Assembly (NCBI GenBank): GCA_041609995.1
Contig: JBFIPU010000002.1
Span: forward strand, 3,733 to 67,732
Source of the DNA: Acidimicrobiia bacterium
GTDB lineage: Bacteria > Actinomycetota > Acidimicrobiia > Spongiisociales > SHLN01
DNA: 64,000 nt
Reading direction: 5' to 3'
The notes under the pieces were generated by a model. That model was not told the origin of the DNA. It ran no database searches and saw nothing but the letters and a program-made list of their open reading frames with translations. Below, piece by piece: positions 894 through 29,845 of the stretch (positions are counted from its first letter, which is position 1; every line of letters begins with the position of its first letter). The position numbers and the translations under genes are program-made.

Positions 894-1589
894 GACCGGC
901 TGCAATCCGGAGAGGGCGAACGCTCTCTGGCCGTCGGGTCCGTAGAAGTAGTCGACAATGATCTCCCGATCGGGCACCTGAGGGGACAGCCCCAGCCAGT
1001 AACTCGTGTCGGCATCGAGCGGAATAGCGGTCACGCCCACCAGCCGGCCGTCCGACTCGTACGCGATCGCAGCGTCCGCCTCGCCGGTGGCGACCTTGGC
1101 GACCACCGCCCTTGCCGAAGTCTCCCAACTCAGCGGTTGAAGGCCCACCCCCCGGTCGGCGAGCAGCTCTGCGGTATAACGACCGAGCGGCACCTCTGGT
1201 GCCGCCAGCACCAATCGCTCGACCGAGGCGAGGGATGCGAGCGAATCCAAGCCGGCCGGGTTGCCGGCGGGAACGATCATCGCAAGTCGGTTGTAGGCGA
1301 CAGGCTGCGGTAGCACGGTGAAAGCGCCGGTCAATTCGAGCGGTCGGAGTGTGGCACGATCGGCTGCGATGAGCACGTCGACGGGGGCACCCGCCTCGAT
1401 GGCGGCCACCAGAGTCTGGGTCCCGGCGATGTTGGTCTCGACCTCGGCGCCCAACCGCAACTCCAGGTCGTGTGCGATCGTCGTGAGAGCGTCGGTCAGC
1501 GACGACGCACCGGCGACCACTGTCACGTCCCTGCTCGCGCAACCGGCCAAGAGGAACAGGGCGAGGGCCGTCGCAGCAAGACGGCTCAC
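888..1589 (-). CDS. modA: Molybdate-binding periplasmic lipoprotein
   Basis: ModA-like sequence (..VLIAADRATL..PVAYNRLAMIVPAGNPAGL..AIAYESD..). Lipoprotein signal VSRLAATALALFLLAGCAS from a GTG start at 1589. 4-nt overlaps with flanking genes. Confidence 0.85.
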   Translation of the reverse strand: MSRLAATALALFLLAGCASRDVTVVAGASSLTDALTTIAHDLELRLGAEVETNIAGTQTLVAAIEAGAPVDVLIAADRATLRPLELTGAFTVLPQPVAYNRLAMIVPAGNPAGLDSLASLASVERLVLAAPEVPLGRYTAELLADRGVGLQPLSWETSARAVVAKVATGEADAAIAYESDGRLVGVTAIPLDADTSYWLGLSPQVPDREIIVDYFYGPDGQRAFALSGLQPVR

Positions 1590-1975
1590 CCGCTTCCTTC
1601 CACGATGACGTTGGTCGCCTTCACGACGGCGGTCGCCCGCATCCCCGGCTCGAGCCCGAGTTCGCGCACCGCCTCCGCAGTATGCAGGCTCACCAGCCGG
1701 TGCGGGCCGGCCTGGATCTCGACCGTTGCACACACGTCGTCGATGTTGACGCCCGTCACGATCCCGGAAAACCGGTTGCGGGCCGAGAGGCGAGCCCTCC
1801 AGGGATCGTCGCGGCCGCGCAGGGCAACGATGAAAGATGCCAGGTCTGCGCCGTCCACCTCGCGGTGGCCGGCCTTCGTGCGGGTGGCAGGCAGGCGCCC
1901 GCTATCGACCCAACGGCGAACGGTGTCGGGGCTGATACCCAGGAATTCGGCTACCTCGCTCATGCGATATTTCAT
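1586..1975 (-). CDS. Molybdate-responsive transcriptional regulator (MerR/excisionase-type HTH + TOBE/Mop molybdate-binding domain)
   Basis: N-term MKYRMSEVAEFLGISPDTVRRWVDSGRLPA (HTH_17-like); C-term ..NRFSGIVTGVNIDDVCATVEIQAG..ATAVVKATNVIV (TOBE fold). First gene of the mod operon. Confidence 0.8.
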   Translation of the reverse strand: MKYRMSEVAEFLGISPDTVRRWVDSGRLPATRTKAGHREVDGADLASFIVALRGRDDPWRARLSARNRFSGIVTGVNIDDVCATVEIQAGPHRLVSLHTAEAVRELGLEPGMRATAVVKATNVIVEGSG

Positions 1976-6751: not shown

Positions 6752-8032
6752 CTAGAACTGTTCCTCTTCGGTGGAGCCGACCAGAGCCAGGGTGGAGGCG
6801 TTGCTCCCAGAGGCGATCACCTGGGCGACCTGATCGAAATAGCCCGCCCCGACTTCCCGCTGGTGGCGGGTTGCCGTATATCCATCCTCTTCCATGGTGA
6901 ACTCGTGCTCCTGCAGCTGGACGTAGGCGGGCATGCCTTCGGCCGCATACCCGCGGGCGAGCTCGAACATCCCGGCGTTGAGGGCATGGAAGCCGGCCAG
7001 CGTGATGAACTGATACTTGTAGCCCATGGCGCCCAACTCCTTCTGAAACACAGCAATCGTGGCGTCATCGAGATGCCGCTTCCAGTTGAAGGAGGGCGAG
7101 CAGTTATAGGCCATCATCTTTCCCGGGTGCTCGGCGCCGAGCCTCTCGGCGAACTCCCGAGCGATGTCGAGGTCGGGTGTGCTGGTCTCGCACCACACGA
7201 GGTCGGCGTACGGAGCGTAGGCCACGCCTCGGGCCACCGCCTGATCCATGCTGTTGTCGACCCGATGGAAGCCCTCGGCAGTCCGCTCTCCGGTCAGGAA
7301 GGGGCGATCGCGCTCATCGATGTCGGAGGTCAGCATGTCGGCTCCGAGAGAGTCGGTGCGGGCGACGATCACCAGATCGACTCCAAGGACGTCGGCCGCC
7401 AGCCGCGCCGCCACCAGGCTCCGGATGTGCTGCTGGGTGGGGATGAGGACTTTCCCACCCATGTGGCCGCATTTCTTCTCGGAGGCCAGCTGGTCCTCGA
7501 GGTGGATGCCGGCTGCGCCGGCTTCGACGTAGGCCTTGACCAGCTCGTATACATTGAGCGCGCCCCCGAACCCGGCCTCGGCGTCCGCCATGATCGGCAG
7601 CATCCAATCGCGTGAGACCTTGCCCTCCGACCATTCGATCTGATCGGCGCGCATCAAGGCGCTGTTGATGCGCTTGACGAGCTCGGGTCCGCTGTTGACG
7701 GGGTAGAGGCTCTGGTCGGGATAGACGTTGCCGCTGAGGTTGGCGTCGCCCGCCACCTGCCAACCGGACAAATAGATCGACTGCAGCCCTGCCTTGGCCA
7801 TCTGGACGGCCTGGCCGCCTGACATCGCGCCGAGAGATCGGACGAAGTCGCCGGAGGTGATCATCTTCCACAGCTTCTCCGCGCCGGTGCGGCTGATGAC
7901 ATGATCCCGGCGGATGGAACCCCGGAGCCTGACAACGTCCTCGGCGCTGTACGGCCGGGTGATACCGTTCCAACGTGGGTTGGTTTCCCAGTCCAGCTGG
8001 AGCGCTTCGATTTCCTGCTGCATGGTTGTCAT
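6752..8032 (-). CDS. aceA: Isocitrate lyase
   Basis: ICL signature [11 protein letters not shown], ..ARTDS..; 426 aa. Confidence 0.95.
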
Positions 8033-8050: not shown

Positions 8051-9640
8051 CTAGGTGCTGACGGCCTGGGGGAGCAGCTCTTGGGCAGGGATCGTGAGGA
8101 ACTCTTCGAAGTTCTCTGATAGGGCCACCTGCAGGAACACCGATGAGGCGCGGGCGACGCCCAGCTGTTCGTAGGCGTCATCACCCATCTCTTCCCGCCA
8201 TCGGGCGAGCTCCTCCGCTGTCAGCTCATGGACCAGTTCGGTCGTGACGGCCCGGCCGTCGTCGAGGCTGGCCCCGTGGCGGACCCACTGCCAGATCTGG
8301 GAGCGGCTGATTTCGGCGGTCGCCGCGTCCTCCATGAGGTTGAAGATGGCGGCGGCTCCGGTCCCGTTTATCCAGGAGGTGATGTAGCGAATACCGACCG
8401 AGATGTTCTTGCGAAGGCCCGCCTCGGTGATCGTTCCGGTGGGCACGGCGAGCAAGTCTGCCTGTGTGATCCAGCCGACCGGTCCCGGATTGGCGATCTG
8501 GTTCGGTGCGCCGCCGAGGACCCGGGCGAAAGCATCCATGGCGACGTCGATCAGGTCCGGGTGGGCAACCCAGGTGCCATCGTGACCCTTGTGGGCCTCC
8601 TTGTCCTTGTCAGCCTTGACCTTGGCCAGCGCCCGATCCGTGATGGTGGGGTTGGACCGATCCGGGATGAATGCCGCCATGCCCCCCATGGCGTGTGCTC
8701 CCCGGCGGTGGCAGGTGTGAACGAGGAGATCGGTGTACGCCTCCATGAACGGCACCGACATCGTCACCTGGTCCCGATCCGGCATCACGAACGCCGGATC
8801 ACTCCGGAGCTTCTTGATGACCGAAAAGATGTAGTCCCAGCGGCCGGCGTTGAGGCCGGCGGAGTGATTCCTCAGCTCGTAGAGGATCTCGTTCATCTCG
8901 AAAGCAGCCGGCAGTGTCTCGATGAGGACGGTTGCCTTGATTGTGCCCTGCGCGATGTCGAGGTGATCCTGGCTGAAGACAAACACGTCATTCCAGAGGC
9001 GAGCTTCGAGGTGTGACTCGAGCTTGGGAAGGTAGTAATACGGTCCGGTGCCGCGAGAGATCAGTTCTCGCCCATTGTGAAAGAGATACATCCCGAAATC
9101 GAACAGCGACGCACTCAGAGGCTCGCCGTCGATCGTGACGCTTCGCTCTTCTAGGTGCCATCCCCGCGGTCGGACCATCAGCACTGCCAGCTGCTCTCCG
9201 AGCTGGTAGATCTTGCCGTTCTGCTCGAGCTCGATCGATCGTCGCACGGCGTCCTTCAGGTTGATCTGGCCGCCGATCGTGTTGGCGTAGGTGGGAGAGT
9301 TGGAATCCTCGAAATCGGCCATGAACGCCTTGGCCCCACTGTTGAGAGCATTGATGATCATCTTGCGATCGACCGGGCCGGTGATCTCGACCGTGCGGTT
9401 CTCGAGGTCCGGCGGAATCGGGGCGATGGTCCAGTCGCTCGTCCGGATCGACTCGGTGGAAGGAAGGAAATCGGGTTTCACGCCCCGATCAAACGCCTCC
9501 TGGCGACCGCGGCGGGTATCGAGCAGCGCAAGGCGCCGGTGATCGAACCGTCGGTGGAGCTCCGCCACGAACGCAAGGGCGTCTTCTGTGAGGATTTCGG
9601 AGGCTCGTGGGTGGTCCGACGGGGTGTGATGGATGTTCAT
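8051..9640 (-). CDS. aceB: Malate synthase A
   Basis: 529 aa; malate synthase A-type sequence (..[63 protein letters not shown]..). Directly upstream of aceA on the same strand. Confidence 0.95.
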
Positions 9641-9915: not shown

Positions 9916-10016
9916 CACGTGAACACGGACACATGAACACGGACACATGAACACGGACACATGAACACGGACACATGAACACCGACACATGAACACCGAC
10001 ACATGAACACCGGGAC
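9916..10016. repeat. Seven tandem copies of a 14-bp unit (GAACACGGACACAT; last copies GAACACCGACACAT / GAACACCGGGACAT) in the aceB-ramB divergent promoter; the final copy contains the ramB-like ATG
   Basis: Read directly: ..acacgtGAACACGGACACAT x4, GAACACCGACACAT x2, GAACACCGGGACATtt.. Generates spurious repeat-derived ORFs on both strands (9651..10127, 9800..10018). Confidence 0.9.
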
Positions 10017-11448
10017 ATTTGGCCGAAGAGTTCGCCACTTCCGGAAGGAAGCGGGACTCACCCTCGAGGAATTGGGGGCGCTGGTCGGCAGGCCCGCACC
10101 GTACCTGTCCAACATCGAGACCGGCAAGCGGGAGCCGAAGCTGGGCGTAGTTCAGGACCTGGCAAATGCGCTGGGGATCAGCTCACAAGCGCTGCTGGAG
10201 GAGACCGCGCCCACCGAACGCGACCGCCTCGAGCTCGAGCTGGAGACGGCCCAACGCCATCCGTTGTATGCCGAGCTCGGCTTGCCACACCTCAAGCCCA
10301 CGGCCAGGATGCCCGACCTCGCCCTCCACCATCTGGTGGAGCTGTTTCGGGGGATGGTTTCGTCACGCGAGCTCGCCCCGGACGCGATGCGGGTGGCGAC
10401 GACCCAGCTTCGTTCCGAGATGGCGCGCCGCGACAACTACGTCGGCGAGATCGAGGACGTTGCCAGCGCCACGCTGGCCAAGTCCTCTTACCAGGGAACC
10501 GGGCCGGTGGCGCAAGCGCAGCTGTTGGAGATCCTCGATGCGTTCGGCTTCTCGATTGCCCGGGTGTCCGACCTTCCGCGGACGACGCGCTCGGTCGCCG
10601 ATCTCGCCAACCGAACCATCTACCTTCCCCAACGGGACGCTCTTCGGACCCGTGACGCCCGGTCTGTCCTGCTGCAGACCCTCGCCCATTTCGCGCTGGA
10701 GCACGTCGACCCCGAAGACCTCGAAACGTTTCTTCGTCAGCGTATCGAGGCCAACTACTTCGCCGGAGCGGTGCTGGCGCCGGAAGAGGCCGCCGTGGCG
10801 TTTCTGCGGGCCGAGCAAGAGGATCGGAACCTGTCGGTGGGCGATCTGAAAGAGGTCTTTTACGTGTCGTATCAGATGGCGGCCCACCGATTCACCAACC
10901 TCGCCACCCGCCACCTCGATATCCCGGTTCACCTCGTGCGGAGCGACGAGGCCGGGATCATCTGGCAGGTCTATGAGAACAACGGCGTACCGCTGCCCCG
11001 GGCGGCCGATGGCAGCGTCGAGGGCCAGCGGCTGTGCAAGGAGTGGGGAACGCGAGCTGTCTTCAAGTCACCCGACAAATACTCGCTTCACTACCAGTAC
11101 ACCGACACCACCAACGGCACCTACTGGTGCGCGTCGCACATCATCGTCGACAGTGAGCCGTTGCATGCGGTCACGGTCGGCACCGACTTCGAGCATGTTC
11201 GGTTCTTCCGCGGAAGGGAAACCGAGCGCCATACGGCCAGCGGGTGCCCGGACGGGCCGTGCTGCCGGACGCCTTCGCCGGGCCTGGCGGAGCGCTGGGC
11301 GGGGCACGTGTGGCCGTCCGTGATCGGACGCTCTCATCCTGGAGCACCGGTTCCTGGTGTCTTCGCCGGTGTCGACATGGTCGAGATCTACGAATTCCTT
11401 GAAACACATGCACAAGACGAGAATCAGATATCGGATCGGGTAGAGTGA
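10003..11448 (+). CDS. ramB: RamB/ScfR-like transcriptional regulator (XRE-family HTH + ImmA/IrrE-type DUF955 domain)
   Basis: N-term HTH GRRVRHFRKEAGLTLEELGALVGRPAPYLSNIETGKREPKLGVVQDLANALGIS. Long C-terminal short-chain-fatty-acyl-CoA-regulator-type domain. Divergent from aceB/aceA, the arrangement known for ramB-icl in Corynebacteriales. Confidence 0.8.
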   Translation: MNTGTFGRRVRHFRKEAGLTLEELGALVGRPAPYLSNIETGKREPKLGVVQDLANALGISSQALLEETAPTERDRLELELETAQRHPLYAELGLPHLKPTARMPDLALHHLVELFRGMVSSRELAPDAMRVATTQLRSEMARRDNYVGEIEDVASATLAKSSYQGTGPVAQAQLLEILDAFGFSIARVSDLPRTTRSVADLANRTIYLPQRDALRTRDARSVLLQTLAHFALEHVDPEDLETFLRQRIEANYFAGAVLAPEEAAVAFLRAEQEDRNLSVGDLKEVFYVSYQMAAHRFTNLATRHLDIPVHLVRSDEAGIIWQVYENNGVPLPRAADGSVEGQRLCKEWGTRAVFKSPDKYSLHYQYTDTTNGTYWCASHIIVDSEPLHAVTVGTDFEHVRFFRGRETERHTASGCPDGPCCRTPSPGLAERWAGHVWPSVIGRSHPGAPVPGVFAGVDMVEIYEFLETHAQDENQISDRVE

Positions 11449-13448: not shown

Positions 13449-14600
13449 CTACGAATCGTCGGACTGATCGACCAGCAGCCCGGCGGTGATCAGCTGAGCG
13501 ATCAACTCATCGACGTCGGAACCGGCAGTACCGACGTCGATGTTGTAGGAGCTGACGACAGCGGCCACGGTTTCTGACCGCTCCCGCCCGTTCGCCACCT
13601 GGTCCCAGATGAAGGCAGAGGTTCCTGTCAGGCGAACAACCTGTCCGCCGGCCGTGTCGGCCACCACGACAGATTCCTCGTCCTGGGCGTACAGCGTGGA
13701 CGGAGCCAGCCGCATCCAGCCGCTCCATTCGCTGATGGTGCGGATCGGCGTATCGGTCGCCTGGTTCTTGAGACACAGCTCGGGCGGCACCAACCGCCAT
13801 CCGCTCTCGCTCGTATCGAGAGCTCGATTCCAGAATCGGATATCTGGCTCGTTCCACGGAAACACGACGTGGTCCGGTTGGCCGTCCCAGTAGCGGTCGT
13901 CGTGCTCGGTCCACCGCTGCTCCCAATCACCGTGGTCGTCCCCCAGCCGCTCCGGAGCGTGATCCACGAGGTCGACGCCACTCACCACCGAAACCACCCT
14001 GGGCTCGGCTGCAGTAATGGCGGACCGCAGCTGCGGGGTCGAGAACAGCGGCGCGAACACGATTTCACTCGCCTCGAGCCTCGCCAGATGACGCCGGAAC
14101 TGATCTCCCGAGTAGGCGACGTCGTCGAACACGACCAGCGGCCGGGCCTCCGCCTCCGGCTCCGGATCCCCTTGCCCGAGCAGGTACGACATGACCCCGA
14201 GCACGAACCAGCCGCCGCGGGGGATGGCACTCAGCGGCCAGTGCGTGATCCCAGCCCCCAACTCCTCACGCAATCGCCCGGCCAGCGAGCGGCAGGCAGC
14301 CTCGACGCCCGGATAGTCCACATAGCGGGTATGAGGCGCCACGTGGGCCAGCATCCAGTGCAGGGCTGTCAAGCGTTGGAGATCGGCTTCGTCGAAGCGG
14401 CCGGCGATGCCCGCGAGGCCGGTGGCGGGCCTCACCACGAGCTGCGGCTGGTTCATCTGCCGGAGAAGCGGGCTCGACTGGATTCCACGACACGCAGCCA
14501 CTGTTGGGGGCGCGCCGATCCTCTCGCTCATCGGTGAGAAGAACGCGAGGGCAGGGGAGAGGTCTAGAGGTTCGAGGTGTAGCGTTTGGGCTGAGGCCAC
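13449..14600 (-). CDS. Fusion protein: N-terminal type-I phosphoribosyltransferase-like domain + C-terminal PqqD-like RiPP recognition element (RRE); putative leader-guided lasso-peptide tailoring enzyme
   Basis: Central PRPP-loop-like motif RPLVVFDDVAYSGDQFRRHLARL. C-terminal ~85 aa (ESVVVADTAGGQVVRLTGTSAFIWDQVANGRERSETVAAVVSSYNIDVGTAGSDVDELIAQLITAGLLV) has the PqqD/RRE pattern. Begins 9 nt after the precursor stop. Track start is GTG at 14600; internal Mets at residues 24 and 48 are alternatives. Confidence 0.6.
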   Translation of the reverse strand: MASAQTLHLEPLDLSPALAFFSPMSERIGAPPTVAACRGIQSSPLLRQMNQPQLVVRPATGLAGIAGRFDEADLQRLTALHWMLAHVAPHTRYVDYPGVEAACRSLAGRLREELGAGITHWPLSAIPRGGWFVLGVMSYLLGQGDPEPEAEARPLVVFDDVAYSGDQFRRHLARLEASEIVFAPLFSTPQLRSAITAAEPRVVSVVSGVDLVDHAPERLGDDHGDWEQRWTEHDDRYWDGQPDHVVFPWNEPDIRFWNRALDTSESGWRLVPPELCLKNQATDTPIRTISEWSGWMRLAPSTLYAQDEESVVVADTAGGQVVRLTGTSAFIWDQVANGRERSETVAAVVSSYNIDVGTAGSDVDELIAQLITAGLLVDQSDDS

Positions 14601-14609
14601 CCGGGCAAA

Positions 14610-14747
14610 CTAGTTGCCCATTCCTTGCCCCATACCGCTGCCGAAGTTGGCGTCAAAGCCCGGGTTACTTGGCCCGTTCTGTGTGAGCTCGGCAATCGAG
14701 CCCAGCCGCTCCACCTTCGGTTTGGTGTATTCCAGCTTCTTGTCCAT
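14610..14747 (-). CDS. Lasso peptide precursor (45 aa), absent from the ORF track
   Basis: Hand translation of the minus strand: MDKKLEYTKPKVERLGSIAELTQ-NGPSNPGFDANFGSGMGQGMGN*. Leader matches the lasso consensus Y-x2-P-x-L/V-x3-G-x5-T-x with Thr at -2. Core has an Asp at position 9 (8 if Gly is residue 1) for the macrolactam. RBS AAGGGG 7 nt upstream of the ATG. Sits between the cyclase and the RRE-fusion gene on the same strand. Confidence 0.8.
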   Translation of the reverse strand: MDKKLEYTKPKVERLGSIAELTQNGPSNPGFDANFGSGMGQGMGN

Positions 14748-14837: not shown

Positions 14838-16610
14838 CTACCAGTGATTGCGCAACCACAACTCGAGCGTCACCAGGGCCCAGAAATTGCTATCGAGGGG
14901 TCGGCCCTGACGGAATGCGGCGACGTGTTCGCGCACGCCTTGCGGTTGCGCGTATCCGGCCCGTACCGAGGACATGTCCGTCGTCAGATCGTCGAGCCTG
15001 CGGTTGGGATCGTGGCGAAGATGCTGGTCGAAGAAGGCCACCGGGATCACCTTCGCCAGGGGTTCCACCACCGCCGGAGGGGCCATGGTCTGCAGAGCGA
15101 GCCGGGTCAGGCGTTTGGGACAGCTCGGAGTCTGGACCAGGTGCTGGGGGATGCTGACCACGAGACGGGCGATCCGCAGGTCGCTCCACGGGTCGACCAT
15201 CCGTACGCCCCGGGCCGCATGCATGCGTTGGGACCAGGATGCCACCCGCATCTGAAATGGCGACAGAATCGTCCGCTGCCGTCGACCCGCAGGGCCTCCC
15301 AGGTCTGCGGGCGCGGAGAATCTGGTGAGGAACTGGCCCATGTTCGTCGCCTCTGCGAAGTCGGGGTTCACCCATGATTGCCAGGGCCTCTTGCGGTGCT
15401 TGGCCAGTTCCAGCCGGACGGGTTGGGGAAGCTTGTCCACGAGGAGGGGCCGTACTGCCTCCTTCCAGGCCGACGCCAAGGCCGAGCGACGACCGAATGA
15501 AGCCAGTTCAGACCATGTGCGGCGGATACCCAGATCGGTCAGCATGCCCGACCAGGCGTAGACCTCGGATCCCGTCATCAGATCACCCCGGTTGCCCAAC
15601 ATCATCGCCTCGACGCCTCCATCGGCCGCCCGGCCGACCGTCGCGTGCAGCAGCGGCTCGTAGTGGCCATAGAGCGGATCGTTCAAATCCGGACCCGCTG
15701 GGAATTCGGCCAGCGGCGGCGACGAGTCGGCGTCGATCTCGGTGACGGGGATCTCGAGCGCAGCCGCCAGAGGGTCGCTGAGGTGGCGCTCGTCCACCGT
15801 GGGAGTGGTCGGGAAGGCGAAACTGAATGCTCGCACCGACGTGTCATTCCGGACCTGGGCGGCGGCTGCTGCCAGCGACCCGCTGTCGAGTCCACCGCTC
15901 AGCATGATGCCCGCCGATCGCGGCGGCAGTCGTACTCGCACAGCCTCCTGGAGGAGGTGCGCCAACTCGGCTGTTGCATCGTCGGGGACCGCCCCCGGTT
16001 CGAGGTCCCAGAACCCGGCGCTCGCCACCCCCCGGGGCGAGACCGTCACTACGTGGCCGGGGGGGACCTGCTCGATCCCTTCGAAGAACGTCCACGTTGG
16101 GTCGAAAACGCCGCCCGCCAGATGTCCGGCCACTGCGCGCTCGTTGATCCTCTTGTCCACCAGCCCCGATGCCAGGAGATGGCTCGGCTCGGACGCAAAC
16201 GCCACCAGGCCATCCGAGTGCCAGAAGACCAGCGGACGCAGCGACATCGGGTCGCGGCCCAGGAGGATTGCCCTGGCATCGAAGTCGATGACCGCGAAGG
16301 CGTAGTCGCCCAGGCAACCAGAAGCAGCAGACGTTCCCAGCTTCTCATAGCCGGACAGAATCATCGCAGCAGGGGGTTCGTCGGCGTGGTCGAAGCGAGC
16401 ATCCGCCACAACTAGACGCCGCCCGTCTGCCGACCAGCCAAGGCCAGCAGACTCCCACTGGAGTGGCAGCGAATAGACCCGAGCCGATTCGTTGCCATCT
16501 GTGACCGGATCGCCATCGCGATCACCGGCCGCCGCCCGAGCCATGGCGGACACGGTTCCCGGATCAACGGGTCGACCGTTCAGGTCCACGATGCCGCCGA
16601 TTCCGGGCAT
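14838..16610 (-). CDS. Lasso peptide cyclase (asparagine synthetase B-like, C protein)
   Basis: N-term vestigial glutaminase-like MPGIGGIV..RPLVFWHSDGLVAFASE; PP-loop ATP-binding motif SGGLDSGS; 590 aa. Confidence 0.9.
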   Translation of the reverse strand: MPGIGGIVDLNGRPVDPGTVSAMARAAAGDRDGDPVTDGNESARVYSLPLQWESAGLGWSADGRRLVVADARFDHADEPPAAMILSGYEKLGTSAASGCLGDYAFAVIDFDARAILLGRDPMSLRPLVFWHSDGLVAFASEPSHLLASGLVDKRINERAVAGHLAGGVFDPTWTFFEGIEQVPPGHVVTVSPRGVASAGFWDLEPGAVPDDATAELAHLLQEAVRVRLPPRSAGIMLSGGLDSGSLAAAAAQVRNDTSVRAFSFAFPTTPTVDERHLSDPLAAALEIPVTEIDADSSPPLAEFPAGPDLNDPLYGHYEPLLHATVGRAADGGVEAMMLGNRGDLMTGSEVYAWSGMLTDLGIRRTWSELASFGRRSALASAWKEAVRPLLVDKLPQPVRLELAKHRKRPWQSWVNPDFAEATNMGQFLTRFSAPADLGGPAGRRQRTILSPFQMRVASWSQRMHAARGVRMVDPWSDLRIARLVVSIPQHLVQTPSCPKRLTRLALQTMAPPAVVEPLAKVIPVAFFDQHLRHDPNRRLDDLTTDMSSVRAGYAQPQGVREHVAAFRQGRPLDSNFWALVTLELWLRNHW

Positions 16611-16624
16611 GGTCTCAGACTAGG

Positions 16625-17599
16625 TTGCGCTCGGAAACCTGCTGGGCGGGAGCTATGAACGATTATCGGATCTACGGCCGCAATCTCCGGTCTTCATTCC
16701 GTTTCGAAAACCGGCTGCTCCCGGCTGCCGGCGAGCCCGAGCTCTATTTTGGGGCGGTGGCAGGACCGGCCTTTGACGCCTCGGTCCACAAACTGGTCTA
16801 TCAAACCGAACCGCCCATCTACGACGGGAAGGCCGAGTTGTACCTCTTCAAGGGAGACGACGAGTTCGTCTTTGAATTCACGGGCGCCAGCCGCTTCCAT
16901 GTGAAGAGTCAGGAGATCCTCTTCGAGGTCACCCATCCCGAGTATTCGTTTCTGACCGAGATCTATTTCCTGGGAATCATCATGAGCGCCTGGCTGGAAC
17001 TCCAGGGTGTCATCGCTCTCCACTCGGCGGCGGTGGCGGTCGGTGACAGGGCGGCGGGGTTCGTCGGGCTCAACCAGGCGGGCAAGAGCACGCTGGCGGC
17101 GTCCCTCATGAACAGAGGTCATGGCCTGATGACCGATGACGTGTTGGCCGTCGAGAAAGTCGAAGGCCGGTTCGTGGCCCACCCCGGCTATCCCCAGATG
17201 CGCATGTGGCCGGAAATGGCGATGGCATTCGGCCTCGATCCCGGGTCGCTGCCCAGGGTGCATCCAGAATTCGACAAAGTGCGCGTGCCGGTCGGGGAGG
17301 GAGGATTCGGGCGCATGCGCCGCGAGGCAGCAGAGCTCTCTCGCATCTATGTCGTGAACCGCGATGACCGTGCAGACGCGCCGGCGGTTCAACCGATGAC
17401 TTCGTCCGAGGCGATGTCCGAGTTGTTGCGCACCTCCTTCGCCGGTCTCGTGCTGGGGGGGATCGAGGTCAGCCACACGAGGTTGCCGGTCGTAGCACAA
17501 TTGGTGGGAGAGGTTCCGGTGCGTCGCCTGACGTATCCGGCCAACCGGTTCGAAGCGGCGTTGGAGATGATCGAGGAGGATGTGCGTGGCAGGCTATAG
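16625..17599 (+). CDS. HPr kinase/phosphorylase C-terminal-domain-like kinase (lasso-peptide kinase family)
   Basis: P-loop region LHSAAVAVGDRAAGFVGLNQAGKSTLAASLMNRGHGLMTDDV typical of HprK-like kinases reported in phosphorylated lasso peptide clusters. Start may be the Met at 16655. Confidence 0.7.
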   Translation: MRSETCWAGAMNDYRIYGRNLRSSFRFENRLLPAAGEPELYFGAVAGPAFDASVHKLVYQTEPPIYDGKAELYLFKGDDEFVFEFTGASRFHVKSQEILFEVTHPEYSFLTEIYFLGIIMSAWLELQGVIALHSAAVAVGDRAAGFVGLNQAGKSTLAASLMNRGHGLMTDDVLAVEKVEGRFVAHPGYPQMRMWPEMAMAFGLDPGSLPRVHPEFDKVRVPVGEGGFGRMRREAAELSRIYVVNRDDRADAPAVQPMTSSEAMSELLRTSFAGLVLGGIEVSHTRLPVVAQLVGEVPVRRLTYPANRFEAALEMIEEDVRGRL

Positions 17600-18524
17600 C
17601 CTCGTTCAGTACGGCGAGATGTTGGCTGATCGAGTTCGAACCTCTGCCTACGTCCGGGCCATGGAGGAGACCATCAAGGCGGGTGACGTCGTGCTGGATC
17701 TGGGGGCCGGCCCCGGCTTCTTTGCGATCAAAGCGGCTTTGATGGACGCCAGGAAGGTCTATGCCATCGAGCCCAATCCCAGCATCGCGCTCGGGCGAGA
17801 GCTGGCCCACACAGCCGGGGTCACCGAGCGGGTCGAGTTCATCCACGCGCTCTCGACCGAAGTCGAATTGCCAGAGAAGGCGGATGTGATCGTGGCCGAT
17901 TTGCGCGGTGCGCTGCCGCTGTACGACGGCTCCATCACGACGATTGCCGACGCCCGCGATCGACTCCTGGCGCCGGGCGGTACATTCATCCCGCTGCGAG
18001 ATGACCTCTACTGCGCCCCCACCTCCGGGGCCCTGAGCCGGGGCTACTCGATATGGACCTCCGAGGAAACCGGGCTCGATCTCACTCCGGGAGCCAAATA
18101 CGCCCTGAACACGTGGGATGCGAGACGCGTTGATCCGTCAATGCTCGCCGCCGGCCCGAGGAAATGGGCGAGCATCGATTATCTCTCGGTCGACAGTGCC
18201 GGGATCAGCGGTCGCGCCGTTTGGAAAGCCGACCATCCTTTCGAAGCGGATGGTTTGTGCCTCTGGTTCGAAACCGAGCTGATCCCGGGCATCGGATACT
18301 CGAGCGGACCGTTGGGGGAGGCCACCACGTATCGCATGGCGTTCTTTCCTCTTAGCGAGACCCTCCGCGTCGATGCCGGTGGACAACTGGAGGTGGAGAT
18401 CGAATCGAGCCCAATTGGCGACTCCCCAGCCTGGACCTGGCAGGCGCGGACGGTCGACGCTGCTGGAGCAATACACGAGCCGGCCAAGCAGTCGAGCCTG
18501 CTGTCCATGCCCATTCCCCGCTGA
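17580..18524 (+). CDS. PRMT-like (protein arginine N-methyltransferase fold) class I SAM-dependent methyltransferase
   Basis: RTSAYVRAMEETIKAGDVVLDLGAGPGFFAIKAALMDARKVYAIEPN..VEFIHALSTEVELPEKADVIVADLRG..RDRLLAPGGTFIP aligns motif-by-motif with the PRMT1 core ([53 protein letters not shown]), plus a C-terminal beta-barrel-like domain. Confidence 0.65.
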   Translation: MCVAGYSLVQYGEMLADRVRTSAYVRAMEETIKAGDVVLDLGAGPGFFAIKAALMDARKVYAIEPNPSIALGRELAHTAGVTERVEFIHALSTEVELPEKADVIVADLRGALPLYDGSITTIADARDRLLAPGGTFIPLRDDLYCAPTSGALSRGYSIWTSEETGLDLTPGAKYALNTWDARRVDPSMLAAGPRKWASIDYLSVDSAGISGRAVWKADHPFEADGLCLWFETELIPGIGYSSGPLGEATTYRMAFFPLSETLRVDAGGQLEVEIESSPIGDSPAWTWQARTVDAAGAIHEPAKQSSLLSMPIPR

Positions 18525-18800
18525 TCAAACGACCCGGATCAGGCCCTTCTGGTGAAGATCCGACAGCAGTTCGTGCAGGTCTTGGCGGAGCGTCTCGTCA
18601 TCGACGTCGAACTGACCCGCCAGCTGCTCACGCGCTGCCGCAATGGAATCAGCGCCGCCGACCGCCTTCCACATCGCGAGCGCAACCGGGTCGAGCGAGT
18701 AATACACCTCGGTTCCGAGATGCAAGATGACAGCCTCGCCATCGGCCAGCTCCTGGACCAGTGCGTCGGGTGCCAGCTCAACCCGTCTCGTCTCATCCAT
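18525..18800 (-). CDS. Lasso peptide biosynthesis B1 protein (PqqD-family RRE)
   Basis: 91 aa, MDETRRVELAPDALVQELADGEAVILHLGTEVYYSLDPVALAMWKAVGGADSIAAAREQLAGQFDVDDETLRQDLHELLSDLHQKGLIRVV: classic PqqD-like pattern. Confidence 0.85.
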   Translation of the reverse strand: MDETRRVELAPDALVQELADGEAVILHLGTEVYYSLDPVALAMWKAVGGADSIAAAREQLAGQFDVDDETLRQDLHELLSDLHQKGLIRVV

Positions 18801-18809
18801 GGCAACCTC

Positions 18810-19268
18810 TCAGTCGAACCGTTTGCCTTCTACCGGACCGGCAAAGGGAGCGTACAGCGTTGCGACGTCGTCATCGTCATTCACAACGGAGCCGTCGACC
18901 TCCACCCAGGCGTGAAAAAGGATCGCACCCTCCTCCTTCTTGACCCCGAAGCGCACGTCGGCGGGAATACCATGTTTTCGCAGGAGCGCCAGTGCCGCTG
19001 TCGACCGGGCGAGACAGTTCGGGCGGCCGATCGAGTATTTGGCAGCCAGAGAAACCAGAGATGCGATATGACGAGCTTCCTCGATTGTCGCCGACCTGGG
19101 TGCGGGTCGCCGGGCCAGCAAATCGTGCATTCGCTGAAATCCCGCCAGGCGGAAGCCGATACGGGTTATATGGAGCAGCCACCAGGCGCGAAACAACAGA
19201 CGACGGTCTCTGCCGGTGAGATCTCTGACGAGGATTCGAATCCGATTGGCCCAGACGGAGCGCAGCAT
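18810..19268 (-). CDS. Lasso peptide biosynthesis B2 protein (transglutaminase-like leader peptidase)
   Basis: Catalytic Cys/His/Asp region RPNCLARSTAALALLRKHGIPADVRFGV..GAILFHAWVEVDGSVVNDDD. Start chosen at Met-29 (19268); the track ORF extends to 19352. Confidence 0.85.
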   Translation of the reverse strand: MLRSVWANRIRILVRDLTGRDRRLLFRAWWLLHITRIGFRLAGFQRMHDLLARRPAPRSATIEEARHIASLVSLAAKYSIGRPNCLARSTAALALLRKHGIPADVRFGVKKEEGAILFHAWVEVDGSVVNDDDDVATLYAPFAGPVEGKRFD

Positions 19269-19324
19269 GCTCCAAAGCGTATCGGCTATGGCCGGCACGG
19301 GTCCGCCGCCATCGCACGGTTTCG

Positions 19325-20455
19325 GTGGGCGACAATGACATGGTGACCGCAATGCCGCGCCACGTGCCCCCCTTCTGGCCGGACGAGACGGAACTCGGCC
19401 TGTTGCGGGCTGCCCTCCTCCCAGATCAGCGGGCGATCCACGCCTGGCGGCAATTGGACCTGAGCTCGGTCGGTGCGCGTCACGAAACCTGGAGCCTGCT
19501 TCCCCTGGCGTTTTTCAATCTCAAGGATCTGGGGGTCCCCATCAACGACATGGCCGAGGCGGCCGCCGCCTACAACCGGACACTCGATACCAATCGCGTG
19601 CTTGCTCAGGCGGCCTCGGAGACGATGGCGTCTTTTCTTCGCGAGGGCATCGATCACGTCGCCCTCAAGGGCCTGGCGTTGTTGACGACGGTGTATCCGG
19701 ATCTGGGAACGCGTCCGATGTTCGATGCCGATGTGATGGTGCGAAGTCTCGACGTGAAACGGGCTGCCCGGGTGTTGGGCCGGGCCGGATACCATCCCGC
19801 CACCCCACTCGAGGATGCCCTTCTGGCCACCAGAGCGAGTGCTCAGTTCGTTAATGCGGACGGGATCGACATCGACCTCCATTGGCACGCCCTCGGCGGA
19901 TACGTGGCCGAGCCATTCGACGATGCGCTGTGGCAGGGGCGGGTCACCACCACCTCGCCGCTGGGGATGGAGATGAAGGTGCTGAGCCGGGCCGAGCAGC
20001 TCACCCAGGTGATCGGGCATGCACTCCGCGCCGGGTGGCCAGGCACGCGATGGTGGGCCGATATCGCCCTGCTTCTCAGATCGTCCTGGACCGATGACCA
20101 GTGGTCACGTCTCGGCGAGTTGGCTTCTCTGTTCCAGATGACGCTTCCCATGTCGGGAATCCTGACGTACCTGCGTGACCATGTCGGCATCGATGTTCAG
20201 CGTGAGGCCTTCGAAGTCCTAGAACGCAACCGCCCGTCTCGATCAGAGAGGATTCAACGCCGGGCGCTCAGCAGGCTCGATCCGGGTTCTACGACAGCGG
20301 CCTTGCTGCGGTCATGGGCCACGTATGCCGCCGTGCAAGCCGCCGGGGAACGCCGCCGGGGGCCGGTTGGCTTCACGCGCTTCACATGGAGGTACCTCGG
20401 ATCGGGCTCTGATGCCGGCAATGCACTCGAAGCCATACGTCGCAAACTCAGCTGA
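19325..20455 (+). CDS. Nucleotidyltransferase-family protein (NTP_transf_5/pfam14907-like)
   Basis: ..VALKGLALLTTVYPDLGTRPMFDADVMVRSLDVKRAARVLGRAGYHP.. matches the 'uncharacterised nucleotidyltransferase' family commonly found in kinase-containing lasso clusters. Divergent from B2; the true start may be a few codons downstream. Confidence 0.6.
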   Translation: MGDNDMVTAMPRHVPPFWPDETELGLLRAALLPDQRAIHAWRQLDLSSVGARHETWSLLPLAFFNLKDLGVPINDMAEAAAAYNRTLDTNRVLAQAASETMASFLREGIDHVALKGLALLTTVYPDLGTRPMFDADVMVRSLDVKRAARVLGRAGYHPATPLEDALLATRASAQFVNADGIDIDLHWHALGGYVAEPFDDALWQGRVTTTSPLGMEMKVLSRAEQLTQVIGHALRAGWPGTRWWADIALLLRSSWTDDQWSRLGELASLFQMTLPMSGILTYLRDHVGIDVQREAFEVLERNRPSRSERIQRRALSRLDPGSTTAALLRSWATYAAVQAAGERRRGPVGFTRFTWRYLGSGSDAGNALEAIRRKLS

Positions 20456-20486: not shown

Positions 20487-21617
20487 TCAGAAGAACGAAG
20501 AGTTTTTGTATTCGGTGAGCTGTTCGAGGTTTTCCTGGATGAAGCGGCTCTCGAATTCGGTCCGCACCTCGTCCTGGATCTCCTTGAGCGGCGCCTGGCA
20601 CTCGTGGTCGGCCACGGCCGTGCGGATCTCTTCTTCGCTCAACGCCCGGATCTCGGCAGTGGTGGCCTCGTCGAACTGGGGGCCCTGATTGAACTGATTG
20701 AAGAAGTCCTCCTGCTCCTCAGGGGTGGTGGTTTCGAAGAACTCCTGGATCTCTTCTTCCGACCAGCCCGCAAACGGGTCGACGTAGGCCTCCTCCATCT
20801 TCCTCCAGAAGACTTCGGCCGCTTGATAGAAATACTCCGGCGGCTCCCGGGGGCTGTCGTAGGAGAACCCCTTGTCCGCCATGCACGATGACCAGGCGTT
20901 CTCGGCCTCGACCATGCGGGGATCGGCGCTGATCTGCTGCTCCAGACGGTCGAAAGCCTCGAAAATCTCCTCGTAGTCGAACTCGTCGTTCTCTTCGAAG
21001 TTCCCATAGATCTCGGTGTGAGCTCGGTTGTAACAACCGTTATCGGGATCGAACTCGTTGACCTGTTCGTCCACGTACTCACCCGTCTCCGGGTCGAGCG
21101 CCGGCTCCTCCCAGACTCCATAGAGGTCTTCGTAGTACTGCTCACGCTCGATCTCGGTGAGAGAGTCGACGTACTCCTGATTGGGATCCACGAACTCTTG
21201 CGCCGGCTGTTCGACGTCAGACCACGGATCATCGAGGATGAATGTGGTGGCCCCGTAGCCGAAACGAGCAGCCCGTTCCTGTTCCGTCAGGTCTCCGAAG
21301 GGATCGAAGAACTCGGCCTCGCCGTAGTCGACCGGCCGGTATTCCCAACCGAATTCGGCCATGCAACCCGCAACGACCTCTTCGACCTGGCGCTGCCGGT
21401 CCCGCTCGGCTGCGGGATCGTATCCGTCTCCCCACCCGAAGAACTCCTCGAGCGTGGCAGCCGGGCTCCCGGGATCTTCGCCGTTCTCCGGCGCGGTCGA
21501 AGCGGCTGTGACGTCCGCCTCCGGCTCTCCGTCGTCCGGCGAGGTCGATCCTCCTCCGCAAGCCGCCATGGCCAGCGCTGCCAGCAGCAGGATTGCCGGC
21601 ACCAGCCAACGCGTCAT
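20487..21617 (-). CDS. Highly acidic, aromatic-rich secreted lipoprotein of unknown function
   Basis: Lipobox LLAALAMAACGGGS. Very Asp/Glu/Phe/Tyr/Trp-rich with repeated E-x-F/E-E-F motifs; no recognisable catalytic domain. Confidence 0.6.
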   Translation of the reverse strand: MTRWLVPAILLLAALAMAACGGGSTSPDDGEPEADVTAASTAPENGEDPGSPAATLEEFFGWGDGYDPAAERDRQRQVEEVVAGCMAEFGWEYRPVDYGEAEFFDPFGDLTEQERAARFGYGATTFILDDPWSDVEQPAQEFVDPNQEYVDSLTEIEREQYYEDLYGVWEEPALDPETGEYVDEQVNEFDPDNGCYNRAHTEIYGNFEENDEFDYEEIFEAFDRLEQQISADPRMVEAENAWSSCMADKGFSYDSPREPPEYFYQAAEVFWRKMEEAYVDPFAGWSEEEIQEFFETTTPEEQEDFFNQFNQGPQFDEATTAEIRALSEEEIRTAVADHECQAPLKEIQDEVRTEFESRFIQENLEQLTEYKNSSFF

Positions 21618-21700
21618 GGAATGGAACCGGTCGTCCATCGTCCTCTCCTATGGAAGGTCAGTCAGGATACGCCGGGATACCACCTGGTGCGGGGCTGTGC

Positions 21701-22250: not shown

Positions 22251-24305
22251 TTGGTGGCTCGGGATGGTCTACCCGGCTCGGTGGCGGGGACGCTGGTGGC
22301 AACGGGGCCGGTGGCGAGGGCGCTGGCAACGGCGGCAGCCCTGGCGTGCGCTGCGTTGATTCTCATGGTTCTGGGGTCCGGCGACGCAGCAGCGTCGGAA
22401 GCAACCCCGGTGACCTTCGTCGACCTGCGCACCGGCCAGTGGTTCTTACAGCATTCAGACGGAACCGAGGTCGCTTTGTACTACGGAGCGCCCGGCGATC
22501 AGCCCCTGATGGGTGACTGGGATTGCGACGGAACCGCCACGCCCGGGGCCTACCGGGCGAGCGACGGCTTCGTGTACCTGAGAAATACACTCGACACCGG
22601 TCCAGGGACGATCCGGTTCTTCCTCGGCATGGCCGGAGACGTCGCTCTGGCAGGGGACTTCAATGGCGATGGCTGCGATAGCGTCTCGATCTATCGACCG
22701 TCGGAAGGACGGGTGTACGTCTCCAACTCACTCGGGTCCGAGGAGGGATACTTCACTGCCGAGGCCGACTACTTCTTCGGTGTGCCGGGGGATAGAGCTT
22801 TCGTGGGTGATTTCGACGGCGACGGCATCGATACCGTGGGACTGCACCGCGCCTCGACCGGGTTCGTCTATTTCACCGACGAACACGCTCCCGCCGGTTT
22901 CGCTGAGACCTCCGATAGCTTTTTCTACGGGGATCCGGGCGACCTCATCACGGCCGGCGATTGGAGCGGCGACGGGACGGACACCGTGGCGATCCTCCGC
23001 CGGGGCGACGGGCGTTTCTATGCACGCAACACGAATTCGCAGGGGCCCGCCGACGTGGTCGTGTCGGTCCCGGGGGATGGGTTGTGGGTGGCTCTGTCCG
23101 GAGCGGGTGTCGGCGGGTCGATCGGATCCCCGTCCCCATCGCCCCCATCGCCGACTCCGCCGCCGGCCCCGCCGCCTCCGCCCCCACCGATTCCCACCGG
23201 CCCGATCGAGATCTTCCCTGGTGACCCCCTGGCGGACCTCGTCGGCGCCAGCCCGCCCGGTACCGAGTTCATCATCAAGGCGGGTGTTCACGTCGGCCAT
23301 GTGATGTATCCGGCGGCGGACATGAAGTTCCTGGGCGAGCCGGGAGCGGTCCTCGACGGGAATGGCGTGCAGCTGAATGCCTTCGCCGGGGATACCGGGA
23401 GGGACCGGGTCGAGATCCGGGGCCTCGAGATCAGAAACTACCGGGTGGGTGTCTTCGACGGCGCCATCAGCGCCCGCCAGATCGGAGATCTGTCAGCCGA
23501 GGGAGTCGGCTGGATCGTTGCCGACAACAACATCCATTCCAACGGGGGCGCCGGCATCAACCTCGGCACCGGAATGACGGTCGTCAACAACTCGATTCAC
23601 GACAACCAGCAGATCGGAATCAGCGGCCTGGGGAGCGAAGAACACCCGATCACGGACGTCACGATCACCGGAAACACCATCTTCCGGAACTCGACGAACC
23701 CCGATTTCGTGTTCGAGCACCACGAAGGCGGGATCAAGACCACGTTCACCAGCAGCCTCGTCGTGGAGGACAACGAGATCTACGACAACGGCGGGGTCGC
23801 CATGTACTGCGACATCCTCTGTAACTCGGTGGTGGTCACCGGCAACCGGATGTACGACAACTGGGGCCGGGCCAACGGCGGCGGCGTCTTCCTCGAGATC
23901 TCGGACGGGCTCGAGGTGACCAACAACTATTTCGGTCCCGGGGGTCACCTCACCTATCCGTACACGATCTACTTCTTCGGCGGGATCACCATCGGCGAAT
24001 CGCACAACGGGTACATCTCCGGCAACGAGGTGGAAGTCGACACTGCGGCCGGCATCGTGGTGCGCAACTGCTGCTCGCACGAGCGGGAGCCTTCCAGCGG
24101 GATCGTGATCGAGAACAACGTCGTGCGGTCGATCAACGGGGGACCCGTCACGGTCGGCTTGACCGACGGGAACTCCAATGTGGGCGACATCTCGTATCGG
24201 GGCAACACCTACCAGGGCGATATCCGGTTTTACTGGAATGGTGGGTGGCTCGGTTTCGACCAATGGCAGGGAATGGGCCAGGACACCACTGGTAGTTTTG
24301 GCTGA
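22251..24305 (+). CDS. Secreted multi-domain protein: FG-GAP/VCBS-like 'GDW/FDxDGxDT' repeat region, Pro-rich linker, right-handed parallel beta-helix domain
   Basis: Signal/TM near ALATAAALACAALILMVLG. At least 5 repeats of [FY]-[FY]-G-x-[PA]-GD-x-[PA]-[LF]-x-GD[WF][DN]-[GC]DG-x-D-[ST] ... GF[VA]Y. Linker SPSPSPPSPTPPPAPPPPPPPIPTGP. C-terminal NxxIxxN/G-rich beta-helix repeats (ADNNIHSNGGAGINLG..VVNNSIHDNQQIGISG..TGNTIFRNS..EDNEIYDNGG..TGNRMYDNWG). Confidence 0.7.
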   Translation: MVARDGLPGSVAGTLVATGPVARALATAAALACAALILMVLGSGDAAASEATPVTFVDLRTGQWFLQHSDGTEVALYYGAPGDQPLMGDWDCDGTATPGAYRASDGFVYLRNTLDTGPGTIRFFLGMAGDVALAGDFNGDGCDSVSIYRPSEGRVYVSNSLGSEEGYFTAEADYFFGVPGDRAFVGDFDGDGIDTVGLHRASTGFVYFTDEHAPAGFAETSDSFFYGDPGDLITAGDWSGDGTDTVAILRRGDGRFYARNTNSQGPADVVVSVPGDGLWVALSGAGVGGSIGSPSPSPPSPTPPPAPPPPPPPIPTGPIEIFPGDPLADLVGASPPGTEFIIKAGVHVGHVMYPAADMKFLGEPGAVLDGNGVQLNAFAGDTGRDRVEIRGLEIRNYRVGVFDGAISARQIGDLSAEGVGWIVADNNIHSNGGAGINLGTGMTVVNNSIHDNQQIGISGLGSEEHPITDVTITGNTIFRNSTNPDFVFEHHEGGIKTTFTSSLVVEDNEIYDNGGVAMYCDILCNSVVVTGNRMYDNWGRANGGGVFLEISDGLEVTNNYFGPGGHLTYPYTIYFFGGITIGESHNGYISGNEVEVDTAAGIVVRNCCSHEREPSSGIVIENNVVRSINGGPVTVGLTDGNSNVGDISYRGNTYQGDIRFYWNGGWLGFDQWQGMGQDTTGSFG

Positions 24306-24361
24306 CCCGGTTAACGTCTTTCGGGTGATGAGTGGTCGATACGCTTCTGCCTGGTGACGCC

Positions 24362-29841
<5,480 letters not shown>

Positions 29842-29845
<4 letters not shown>

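Follow-up and report, generated by a model that had tools for sequence, protein, structure and literature searches.

A methyltransferase with the fold of the protein arginine methyltransferases (PRMTs) is encoded inside a lasso peptide cluster on contig JBFIPU010000002.1 of an Acidimicrobiia bacterium (assembly GCA_041609995.1), from which a stretch of 64,000 nucleotides (positions 3,733 to 67,732, forward strand), referred to below as the window, was analysed. The enzyme is the partner of an HprK-like kinase; the two genes overlap, and their pairing is conserved across phyla. Very probably it is a lasso tailoring enzyme coupled to the kinase, with an acceptor other than a core arginine. As the methyl acceptor we tentatively favour a phosphate-linked group, phosphoryl or phospho-glycosyl, on Ser14 of the precursor core. 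The two statements combined, kinase coupling with a phosphate-linked acceptor, we regard as evenly balanced, a compromise between our confidence in each of them.

The methyltransferase, its fold and its altered loops

The methyltransferase gene occupies positions 17580-18524 on the forward strand as an open reading frame of 314 codons, the presence of which in the window was verified. A Shine-Dalgarno sequence, GGAGG, lies 6 nucleotides ahead of a GTG codon at 17586 and the identical database protein (P0001) has 312 residues; therefore translation probably starts two codons downstream, at this GTG, and yields 312 residues. With either start codon the gene overlaps the kinase stop codon (17597-17599). 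A pseudogene or a frameshift truncation was considered and rejected, as the methyltransferase stop codon abuts the neighbouring B1 gene and the corresponding gene of the closest related locus (L001) ends alike.

A phmmer search of the PDB returned PRMTs for all of the top 55 or so matches (PRMT6, then PRMT8, PRMT1, CARM1 and others). The best of them, PRMT6 (E=2.9e-23), covers residues 10-283 including the barrel, and the segments VLDLGAGPG (residues 38-46) and YAIE (61-64) align to it without gaps. Motif I and the acidic post-I residue of a class I Rossmann domain binding S-adenosylmethionine (SAM) are present, all SAM-binding motifs are intact, and G42, G44 and A62 are invariant among the homologues. 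The AlphaFold2 model, built with 120 homologues, is very confident (predicted local distance difference test, pLDDT, 94.8; predicted template modelling score, pTM, 0.91) and consists of a Rossmann domain and a C-terminal beta-barrel, the strands of which run over residues 140-305 with pLDDT >90. When this model was compared with the PDB by Foldseek, the top 50 matches were again all PRMTs (template modelling, TM, scores of 0.78-0.87, E down to 1.6e-27), among them PRMT6 (E=1.6e-27, TM 0.80), PRMT1 (6nt2) and yeast Hmt1 (both TM 0.87); about 320 columns were aligned to PRMT1 and PRMT6, at TM 0.80-0.87. The N-terminal helix, the Rossmann SAM domain and the barrel are those of type I PRMTs (PRMT6, PRMT1/Hmt1, CARM1), to which identity is 20-26%, and a helical insertion at the position of their dimerisation arm is also found. 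On its predicted structure the protein is a SAM-dependent methyltransferase with the full two-domain type I PRMT fold, and the preliminary description of this DNA, which had proposed a PRMT fold with a C-terminal barrel, is borne out by all three methods.

In a comparison with profile hidden Markov models (HMMs), which had been suggested as a check of that proposal, the best Pfam match is PrmA (PF06325, 3.8e-9, 36.9 bits, cut-off 22), confined to the Rossmann core and to profile positions 148-256 of 296, and the PRMT_C model on residues 154-278 stays at 19.3 bits, under its cut-off of 27. Generic class I methyltransferase models are also among the Pfam matches. PF06325 itself had been mistaken for a PRMT-type model. 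The usual database name of the homologues is PrmA as well, an identity that was rejected for the window protein given the Rossmann-only Pfam match, the NCBIfam results and the lack of the L11-binding domain. No NCBIfam model exceeded its cut-off, the PrmA equivalogs reaching about 33 bits against cut-offs of 183-269 (TIGR00406, 33.7 against 183). PrmA shares with the window protein only the Rossmann core; it has an N-terminal L11-binding domain, whereas the window protein has the barrel instead.

Where the enzyme parts from PRMTs is in the loops that recognise arginine. It had been described as matching PRMTs motif for motif, which is right for VLDLGAGPGFF and ARKVYAIE, both found in the sequence, but not for the double-E and THW loops. 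In a gap-free, high-confidence region of the phmmer alignment SEWMGYGLLHES of PRMT6 aligns with ADLRGALPLYDG of the window enzyme; the loop ADLRGALPLYD replaces the double-E, with D107 at the place of the first Glu and D116 at that of the second, and TTY stands for THW. The position of D107 is Asp in all 125 homologues compared, while position 116 varies among Q, G, E, D, R and N. The loop of these homologues reads SDLRGxLP, with R109, G110 and P113 invariant or nearly so and with S106 changed to Ala in the window enzyme; the group is called here the SDLRG family. Its consensus at the THW position is x-I/V/T-Y, without His and Trp. Judged by the alignment, the PRMT double-E, SEWMGY...E, is replaced in the family by SDLRGxLP with the first acidic residue alone retained, and both loops that define arginine recognition are missing from the family as a whole. 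As the double-E and THW loops both fail, we do not file the enzyme as a protein arginine methyltransferase. D107 and R109 presumably have roles in the acceptor pocket, which we assume from the alignment and from the CARM1 and PRMT1 structures.

The closest relative, P0002, is 49% identical and is encoded in the same type of cluster (L001) of a metagenome-assembled genome of Acidimicrobiia; a protein search for further methyltransferases of this clade gave P0002 only. The two share the changes G221F, H224D and G252R, a combination found in none of the other 118 homologues, and G252R falls in the THW-loop equivalent. They also lack a C-terminal helical extension. Most family members reach about 380 residues by means of this extra three-helix domain of about 65 residues (residues ~315-380 in methyltransferase numbering; loci L010-L088 and L156-L158), the consensus of which is VPxLxExGxxDxxILxxMDGxxSLxEIAxxLxxxFPxRF; in the model of P0010 it forms helices over residues 330-380 and no beta-sheet. 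When 20 tails were compared by hhalign with 56 B1 proteins, they aligned in register with the PqqD helices at a probability of 15% only.

With its lost tail and its three private substitutions, of which one lies in the THW-loop equivalent, the window protein could be catalytically dead, a prozyme-like kinase scaffold that remained once the C-terminal domain was gone; PRMT paralogues without activity have precedents, and the prozyme of TbPRMT1 is among the Foldseek matches. We regard this as very improbable. The SAM motifs and all 13 family-invariant residues (the family markers include W229-F230, P244 and W287) are intact, the AlphaFold2 model is very confident, another lineage has retained the gene, 49% identical, beside the same neighbours, and tail-less variants also occur in typical clusters, as in L158, where the methyltransferase has 332 residues.

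A lasso-associated family paired with a kinase

Bacterial PRMT homologues had been thought rare, a view that the size of the family contradicts: 778 proteins were found at E<=1e-5 in 90%-identity clusters, an exhaustive HMMER scan at E<=1e-30 gave 873 clusters at 50% identity, and relatives of the methyltransferase are encoded by at least 278 species genomes. They are spread over Acidobacteriota, Gemmatimonadota, Cyanobacteria, Chloroflexota, Proteobacteria and Acidimicrobiia. The gene neighbourhood was analysed in 80 loci, one per species, picked by the presence of the methyltransferase alone and searched by tblastn with the window proteins. Lasso genes were detected in 67 of them and an HprK-like kinase in 68, directly upstream and on the same strand in 54. 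Relatives of B1 were found by tblastn in most methyltransferase loci, and a PF14907 nucleotidyltransferase was found by HMM search in 53 of the 80, mostly just downstream of the methyltransferase. Twelve loci had no detectable kinase, and several of those contigs end upstream of the methyltransferase. Three loci picked by their kinase instead, from the cyanobacterium Argonema antarcticum (L156, core ...SANKTNT) and two metagenome contigs, all show the order B1, B2, cyclase (C), precursor (A), kinase, methyltransferase, an optional ATP-binding cassette (ABC) transporter and nucleotidyltransferase. The SDLRG family is dedicated to lasso clusters, where it makes up a tailoring module with the nucleotidyltransferase and the kinase, the gene of which often overlaps that of the methyltransferase. 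Other arrangements were noted at L061 (9998-14601), where the methyltransferase is followed by an ABC transporter, a PF14907 protein and a second ABC gene with no kinase, and at L042 (9995-11164), where it adjoins CorA and a two-component system. The window enzyme carries the SDLRGxLP loop, the family invariants and the adjacent kinase gene; it is a tail-less divergent member that lacks the C-terminal extension and, in its cognate core, a basic residue followed by Ser or Thr, a feature of most family cores described below.

The methyltransferase had been placed inside a lasso cluster, and all components of such a cluster are identified around it. The kinase, at 16625-17599 on the forward strand, matches Hpr_kinase_C (5.9e-5) and TIGR04352 HprK_rel_A (3.2e-8), both below cut-off, and keeps in the alignment the catalytic residues His133, the GKS P-loop at 153-155 and the Asp-Asp pair at 171-172; the conserved His, the P-loop and the Asp-Asp motif of such kinases are described in PMC10368454. 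On the reverse strand lie the precursor gene of 45 codons (14610-14747; NF033521 lasso leader, 21.7 bits, cut-off 19), the asparagine-synthase-like lasso cyclase C (14838-16610; PF00733, 4.6e-26; best NCBIfam match NF033535, 4.9e-46), B1, a stand-alone PqqD-like RiPP recognition element (RRE) of 91 residues (18525-18800; called as PqqD in the identical contigs L005-L008), and the transglutaminase-like B2 leader peptidase (18810-19352; PF13471, 6.2e-23; NF033537, 5.6e-26, 91.5 bits, cut-off 33). A PF14907 nucleotidyltransferase-like protein of the PsmN type follows on the forward strand (19325-20455; 2.2e-32). The leader with Thr at position -2, the B1 RRE, B2 and the asparagine-synthase-like cyclase together make a lasso biosynthetic gene cluster.

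One further gene, at 13449-14600 on the reverse strand, encodes a phosphoribosyltransferase (PRTase)-like N-terminal domain (weak PRTase-CE match) fused to a C-terminal lasso B1/PqqD domain (PqqD 1.7e-11, residues 311-376), the C-terminus of which matches TfuB1 and TbiB1. In about 28 related metagenome loci a full-length relative is found directly upstream of the kinase, and this suggests that the fusion protein serves the kinase as its own partner or is an additional tailoring enzyme. The protein has 335-383 residues and the PRTase-like motif VVFDDVAYSGDQF, and the window cluster possesses two RREs, in B1 and in the fusion.

HprK-like kinases phosphorylate leader-bearing lasso precursors, a reaction that the RRE accelerates, and in pseudomycoidin biosynthesis the PF14907 protein PsmN adds a hexose to the phosphate. 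The clusters of paeninodin (PadeK), ThcoK/SyanK, pseudomycoidin (PsmK/PsmN) and BsfK share with the window the split B1/B2, the cyclase, the kinase and PF14907, but they lack a methyltransferase, and the core has Ser as its last residue or, in BsfA, is phosphorylated at Ser3. The C-terminal Ser is conserved in the characterised phosphorylated lasso type according to a review, whereas the window core ends in Asn; the methyltransferase gene overlapping that of the kinase and the additional PRTase-like-RRE fusion also set the window apart. Lasso methyltransferases listed in reviews of 2021 and 2022 are the carboxyl O-methyltransferases StspM/LasF, of which StspM acts on the linear precursor, and enzymes of the PIMT type only, so that the statement in the preliminary description that known lasso methylations use unrelated O-methyltransferases stands. 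Like the window enzyme these are SAM-dependent lasso tailoring enzymes, but StspM/LasF (resembling small-molecule O-methyltransferases) and the PIMT-like proteins belong to other families, to which the window enzyme, with its PRMT fold, has no Pfam match. Literature searches for a link of lasso peptides, or of peptides made by the ribosome and modified after translation (RiPPs) at large, to a PRMT- or PrmA-type methyltransferase found no description of the SDLRG family. Tailoring methylation of lasso peptides is known; the PRMT fold, the coupling to a kinase and the likely chemistry are new.

The window kinase shares 58% identity with the kinase of L001 and about 27% with those of typical methyltransferase clusters. 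A metagenome scan with this pair of kinases recovered 65 loci of the same subfamily, with the motif YPQMRMW, and about 63 of them are without a methyltransferase; an enzyme of the SDLRG family was found in L138 only, and L139 has a different PRMT-fold enzyme. The contigs of L138, L154 and L155 are too short to reach the precursor. All three kinases of the main family that were sampled were accompanied by a methyltransferase. Kinases without a methyltransferase are therefore common and methyltransferases without a kinase fewer, which fits a methyltransferase acting after the kinase.

The L139 enzyme (metagenome contig Ga0126313_10003228, ~735-1972, reverse strand) has the PRMT fold and is encoded in a lasso cluster, as in the window, and the kinase subfamily and the PRTase-RRE fusion are shared as well. 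It has, however, the loops SEIIGNDPLGEE (SE...EE) and NHW, passes the PRMT_C cut-off and has CARM1 as its best PDB match (3e-23). The enzyme is not adjacent to the kinase and carries an N-terminal extension of about 105 residues, for which similarity to an RRE was not significant. The core of its cluster contains Arg (...EIGRSTPGS...), intact arginine-binding loops going together with an Arg in the core, while the loops are lost in the window family. The Arg in that core makes the L139 protein a candidate for a true arginine methyltransferase of peptides. Cores of the 'NAC...GRSTP' type were seen both with a PRMT-fold enzyme and in its absence. Type I PRMTs proper differ from the window enzyme in the same two loops; in addition the window enzyme is bacterial, encoded in a RiPP cluster, and has no Arg in the product.

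Precursor cores and the methyl acceptor

The window precursor consists of the leader MDKKLEYTKPKVERLGSIAELTQ, with the motif Y-x-x-P-x-V-x3-G...T(-2), and the predicted core NGPSNPGFDANFGSGMGQGMGN (14610-14678), with a predicted nine-residue ring from N1 to D9. An Asn start and a nine-residue ring closing on Asp9 are common in related clusters, which makes the earlier core prediction reasonable. The core has no Lys and no Arg, as had been claimed, and belongs to the sole precursor-like open reading frame of the window: two regular-expression screens in six frames found no further precursor that would contain Lys or Arg anywhere in the 64 kb. This excludes a core arginine as the acceptor. The acceptors named as candidates in the preliminary description, a phosphate or sugar, an Asn/Gln amide and a leader Lys or Arg, would still be plausible. 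The only serines of the core are S4 and S14, and it has amides at N1, N5, N11, Q18 and N22; the basic residues K3, K4, K9, K11 and R14 are in the leader.

Across 62 predicted cores from methyltransferase-containing clusters Ser or Thr occurs in every one, and within the last seven residues in 59. At least one Lys or Arg is present in 60, the exceptions being the window core and that of L081 (ALSGAPMEGLAGGMMTM). A [KR][ST] pair lies within the last seven residues of 45 cores (e.g., ...AGPKTGT, ...NNLKT, ...TMDKT and ...MRKTG) and in neither the window core nor that of L001, NGTTNPGADPSFGSSMGKGDPGGGN, the single Lys of which aligns with Gln18 of the window, both being flanked by Gly. A Met often stands shortly ahead of the C-terminal [KR][ST] (M-x-K-T or M-R-K-T in L016, L019, L053, L066, L082 and others), and the two Lys/Arg-free cores both have Met-rich tails, GMGQGMGN in the window and GGMMTM in L081. 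Both methyltransferase-positive cores of the window type carry M16, which is absent from the methyltransferase-negative relatives, and both end in G-N.

Window-type cores were found in many of the 65 loci of the kinase subfamily, with the pattern DLTQ followed by TGQTNPGxD(G/A)KxGSxxS(Q/K)Gx. G13-S14 and [QK]18-G19 are conserved in them whether or not a methyltransferase is present. As G13-S14 is conserved irrespective of the methyltransferase, it is likely the kinase site; position 18 is, by the same comparison, not specific to methyltransferase clusters.

The following order of steps, phosphorylation site and methyl acceptor are proposed. The leader would be bound by an RRE, that of B1 or that of the PRTase-like fusion, and the kinase would phosphorylate a core serine, likely Ser14 of the conserved G-S. 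The methyltransferase, produced from the same message as the kinase, would then methylate the modified site, adding one or more methyl groups; the acceptor would be the Ser14 phosphoryl or, if the nucleotidyltransferase acts like PsmN, a phospho-glycosyl group. B2 and C would then remove the leader and close the N1-D9 ring. A phosphate-linked acceptor is favoured because a hydroxyl or phospho site is the sole kinase-tied candidate possible in all 62 cores, because it explains why most methyltransferase loci have a kinase and kinases are often without a methyltransferase, and because the near-invariant Arg two residues past the pocket Asp could bind an anion. That the acceptor would not be a core Lys or Arg follows from the window and L081 cores, which have none, and from the L001 Lys aligning with a Gln. 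Extended to the whole group, the proposal would be that the SDLRG family left arginine chemistry and methylates a phosphate or phospho-sugar added by the kinase, giving a methyl-phosphoester on the lasso precursor; this wider form we consider rather doubtful.

Several points weigh against a phosphate-linked acceptor. To our knowledge, all characterised PRMT-fold enzymes are N-methyltransferases, and phosphate O-methylation is not known for them. For an anionic acceptor, the invariant Asp of the presumed pocket is awkward. The basic residue next to a C-terminal Ser or Thr in those 45 cores could mean that the family consists of Lys/Arg N-methyltransferases, and the window clade, with its three private changes and the loss of the tail, may have switched substrate. 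If the phosphate is also decorated by the nucleotidyltransferase, its methylation would be chemically crowded. Finally, 11 of the 80 methyltransferase loci, mostly from Chloroflexota and Cyanobacteria, have neither a kinase nor lasso genes within 10 kb.

The chemistry of PRMTs is N-methylation, and in a core free of Arg a side-chain amide is the closest planar nitrogen that donates hydrogen bonds, as the guanidinium does. The enzyme could therefore methylate a core Gln or Asn carboxamide, with Gln18 of G-Q-G as the best candidate: Asn and Gln abound in the core, the Gly-flanked position 18 holds Q in the window and K in L001, and D107 as an acid and R109 as a base could, if their assumed roles are right, clamp the NH2 and C=O of an amide. 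Yet the equal conservation of [QK]18-G19 in related clusters without a methyltransferase speaks against it, and the cores AASPRTMMDSPAGPAMSK and ALSGAPMEGLAGGMMTM, both from methyltransferase clusters, lack any Asn or Gln, so that an amide is not the family-wide acceptor. It would be unusual for one enzyme to take a Lys amine as well as a Gln amide, and the tight linkage to the kinase would go unexplained. On balance we think amide methylation unlikely.

Retention of the PRMT fold and of the first acidic residue would also suit N-methylation of a Lys or Arg outside the core, either one of the five basic leader residues or one in another protein of the pathway, for example as a means of regulating processing. 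R14, in the leader segment ERLGS, is conserved in L001, and Lys or Arg is present in most family cores. A mark on the leader, however, would be discarded with it and leave the product unmarked, and the [KR][ST] motif of the family sits in the core, not in the leader. The second Glu and the His and Trp of THW, needed for guanidinium binding, are missing throughout the family; a lasso-associated PRMT-like enzyme that retains them does exist, in L139. We accordingly judge a target of this kind improbable.

Acceptors in the core that do not depend on phosphorylation, namely the C-terminal carboxylate (as in lassomycin), the sulfur of a Met, the oxygen of a Ser or a backbone nitrogen, merit little credence. 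The C-terminal methyl ester is the known lasso methylation, the conserved R109 could bind a carboxylate, and the G-N ends, M16 and the frequent Met near [KR][ST] described above would fit such a target. But the Met and G-N correlations in the window clade come from two sequences, the known C-terminal O-methyltransferases belong to a different fold family according to the reviews, and the conserved kinase-methyltransferase gene pair is again left unexplained.

Other genes of the window and significance of the family

Just past the cluster, at 20487-21638 on the reverse strand, a very acidic predicted lipoprotein of 383 residues without a Pfam match is encoded, followed on the forward strand by a secreted protein of 684 residues (22251-24305) with a Pro-rich linker and a right-handed beta-helix domain. 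Further on, the gene at 24332-29845 on the forward strand encodes a polypeptide of 1837 residues that joins a biotin carboxylase, a biotinyl domain, an acetyl-CoA carboxylase (ACC) central region and a carboxyltransferase, i.e., a eukaryote-style fused acyl-CoA carboxylase. On the other side of the cluster lie the genes of the glyoxylate shunt, isocitrate lyase (6752-8032) and malate synthase (8051-9640), both on the reverse strand, with a regulator of the XRE helix-turn-helix/IrrE-peptidase type (10003-11448, forward strand) divergent from them in a RamB-like arrangement.

Lasso peptides have been heavily mined, and the tailoring chemistries described for this class number only about nine. 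Whichever acceptor is the true one, the SDLRG family would bring a new lasso modification and give the PRMT fold a new reaction or a new specificity; the candidate marks are a methyl-Lys or methyl-Arg beside a phospho-Thr, a methyl phosphate and a methyl amide. A methyl-phosphoester, if true, would be a modification not yet described in ribosomal peptides. The Lys/Arg-free core of the window is in this respect a natural experiment that separates phosphate methylation from methylation of Lys or Arg. The family is also relevant to the origin of eukaryotic PRMTs, as it comprises abundant bacterial relatives with the full barrel domain.

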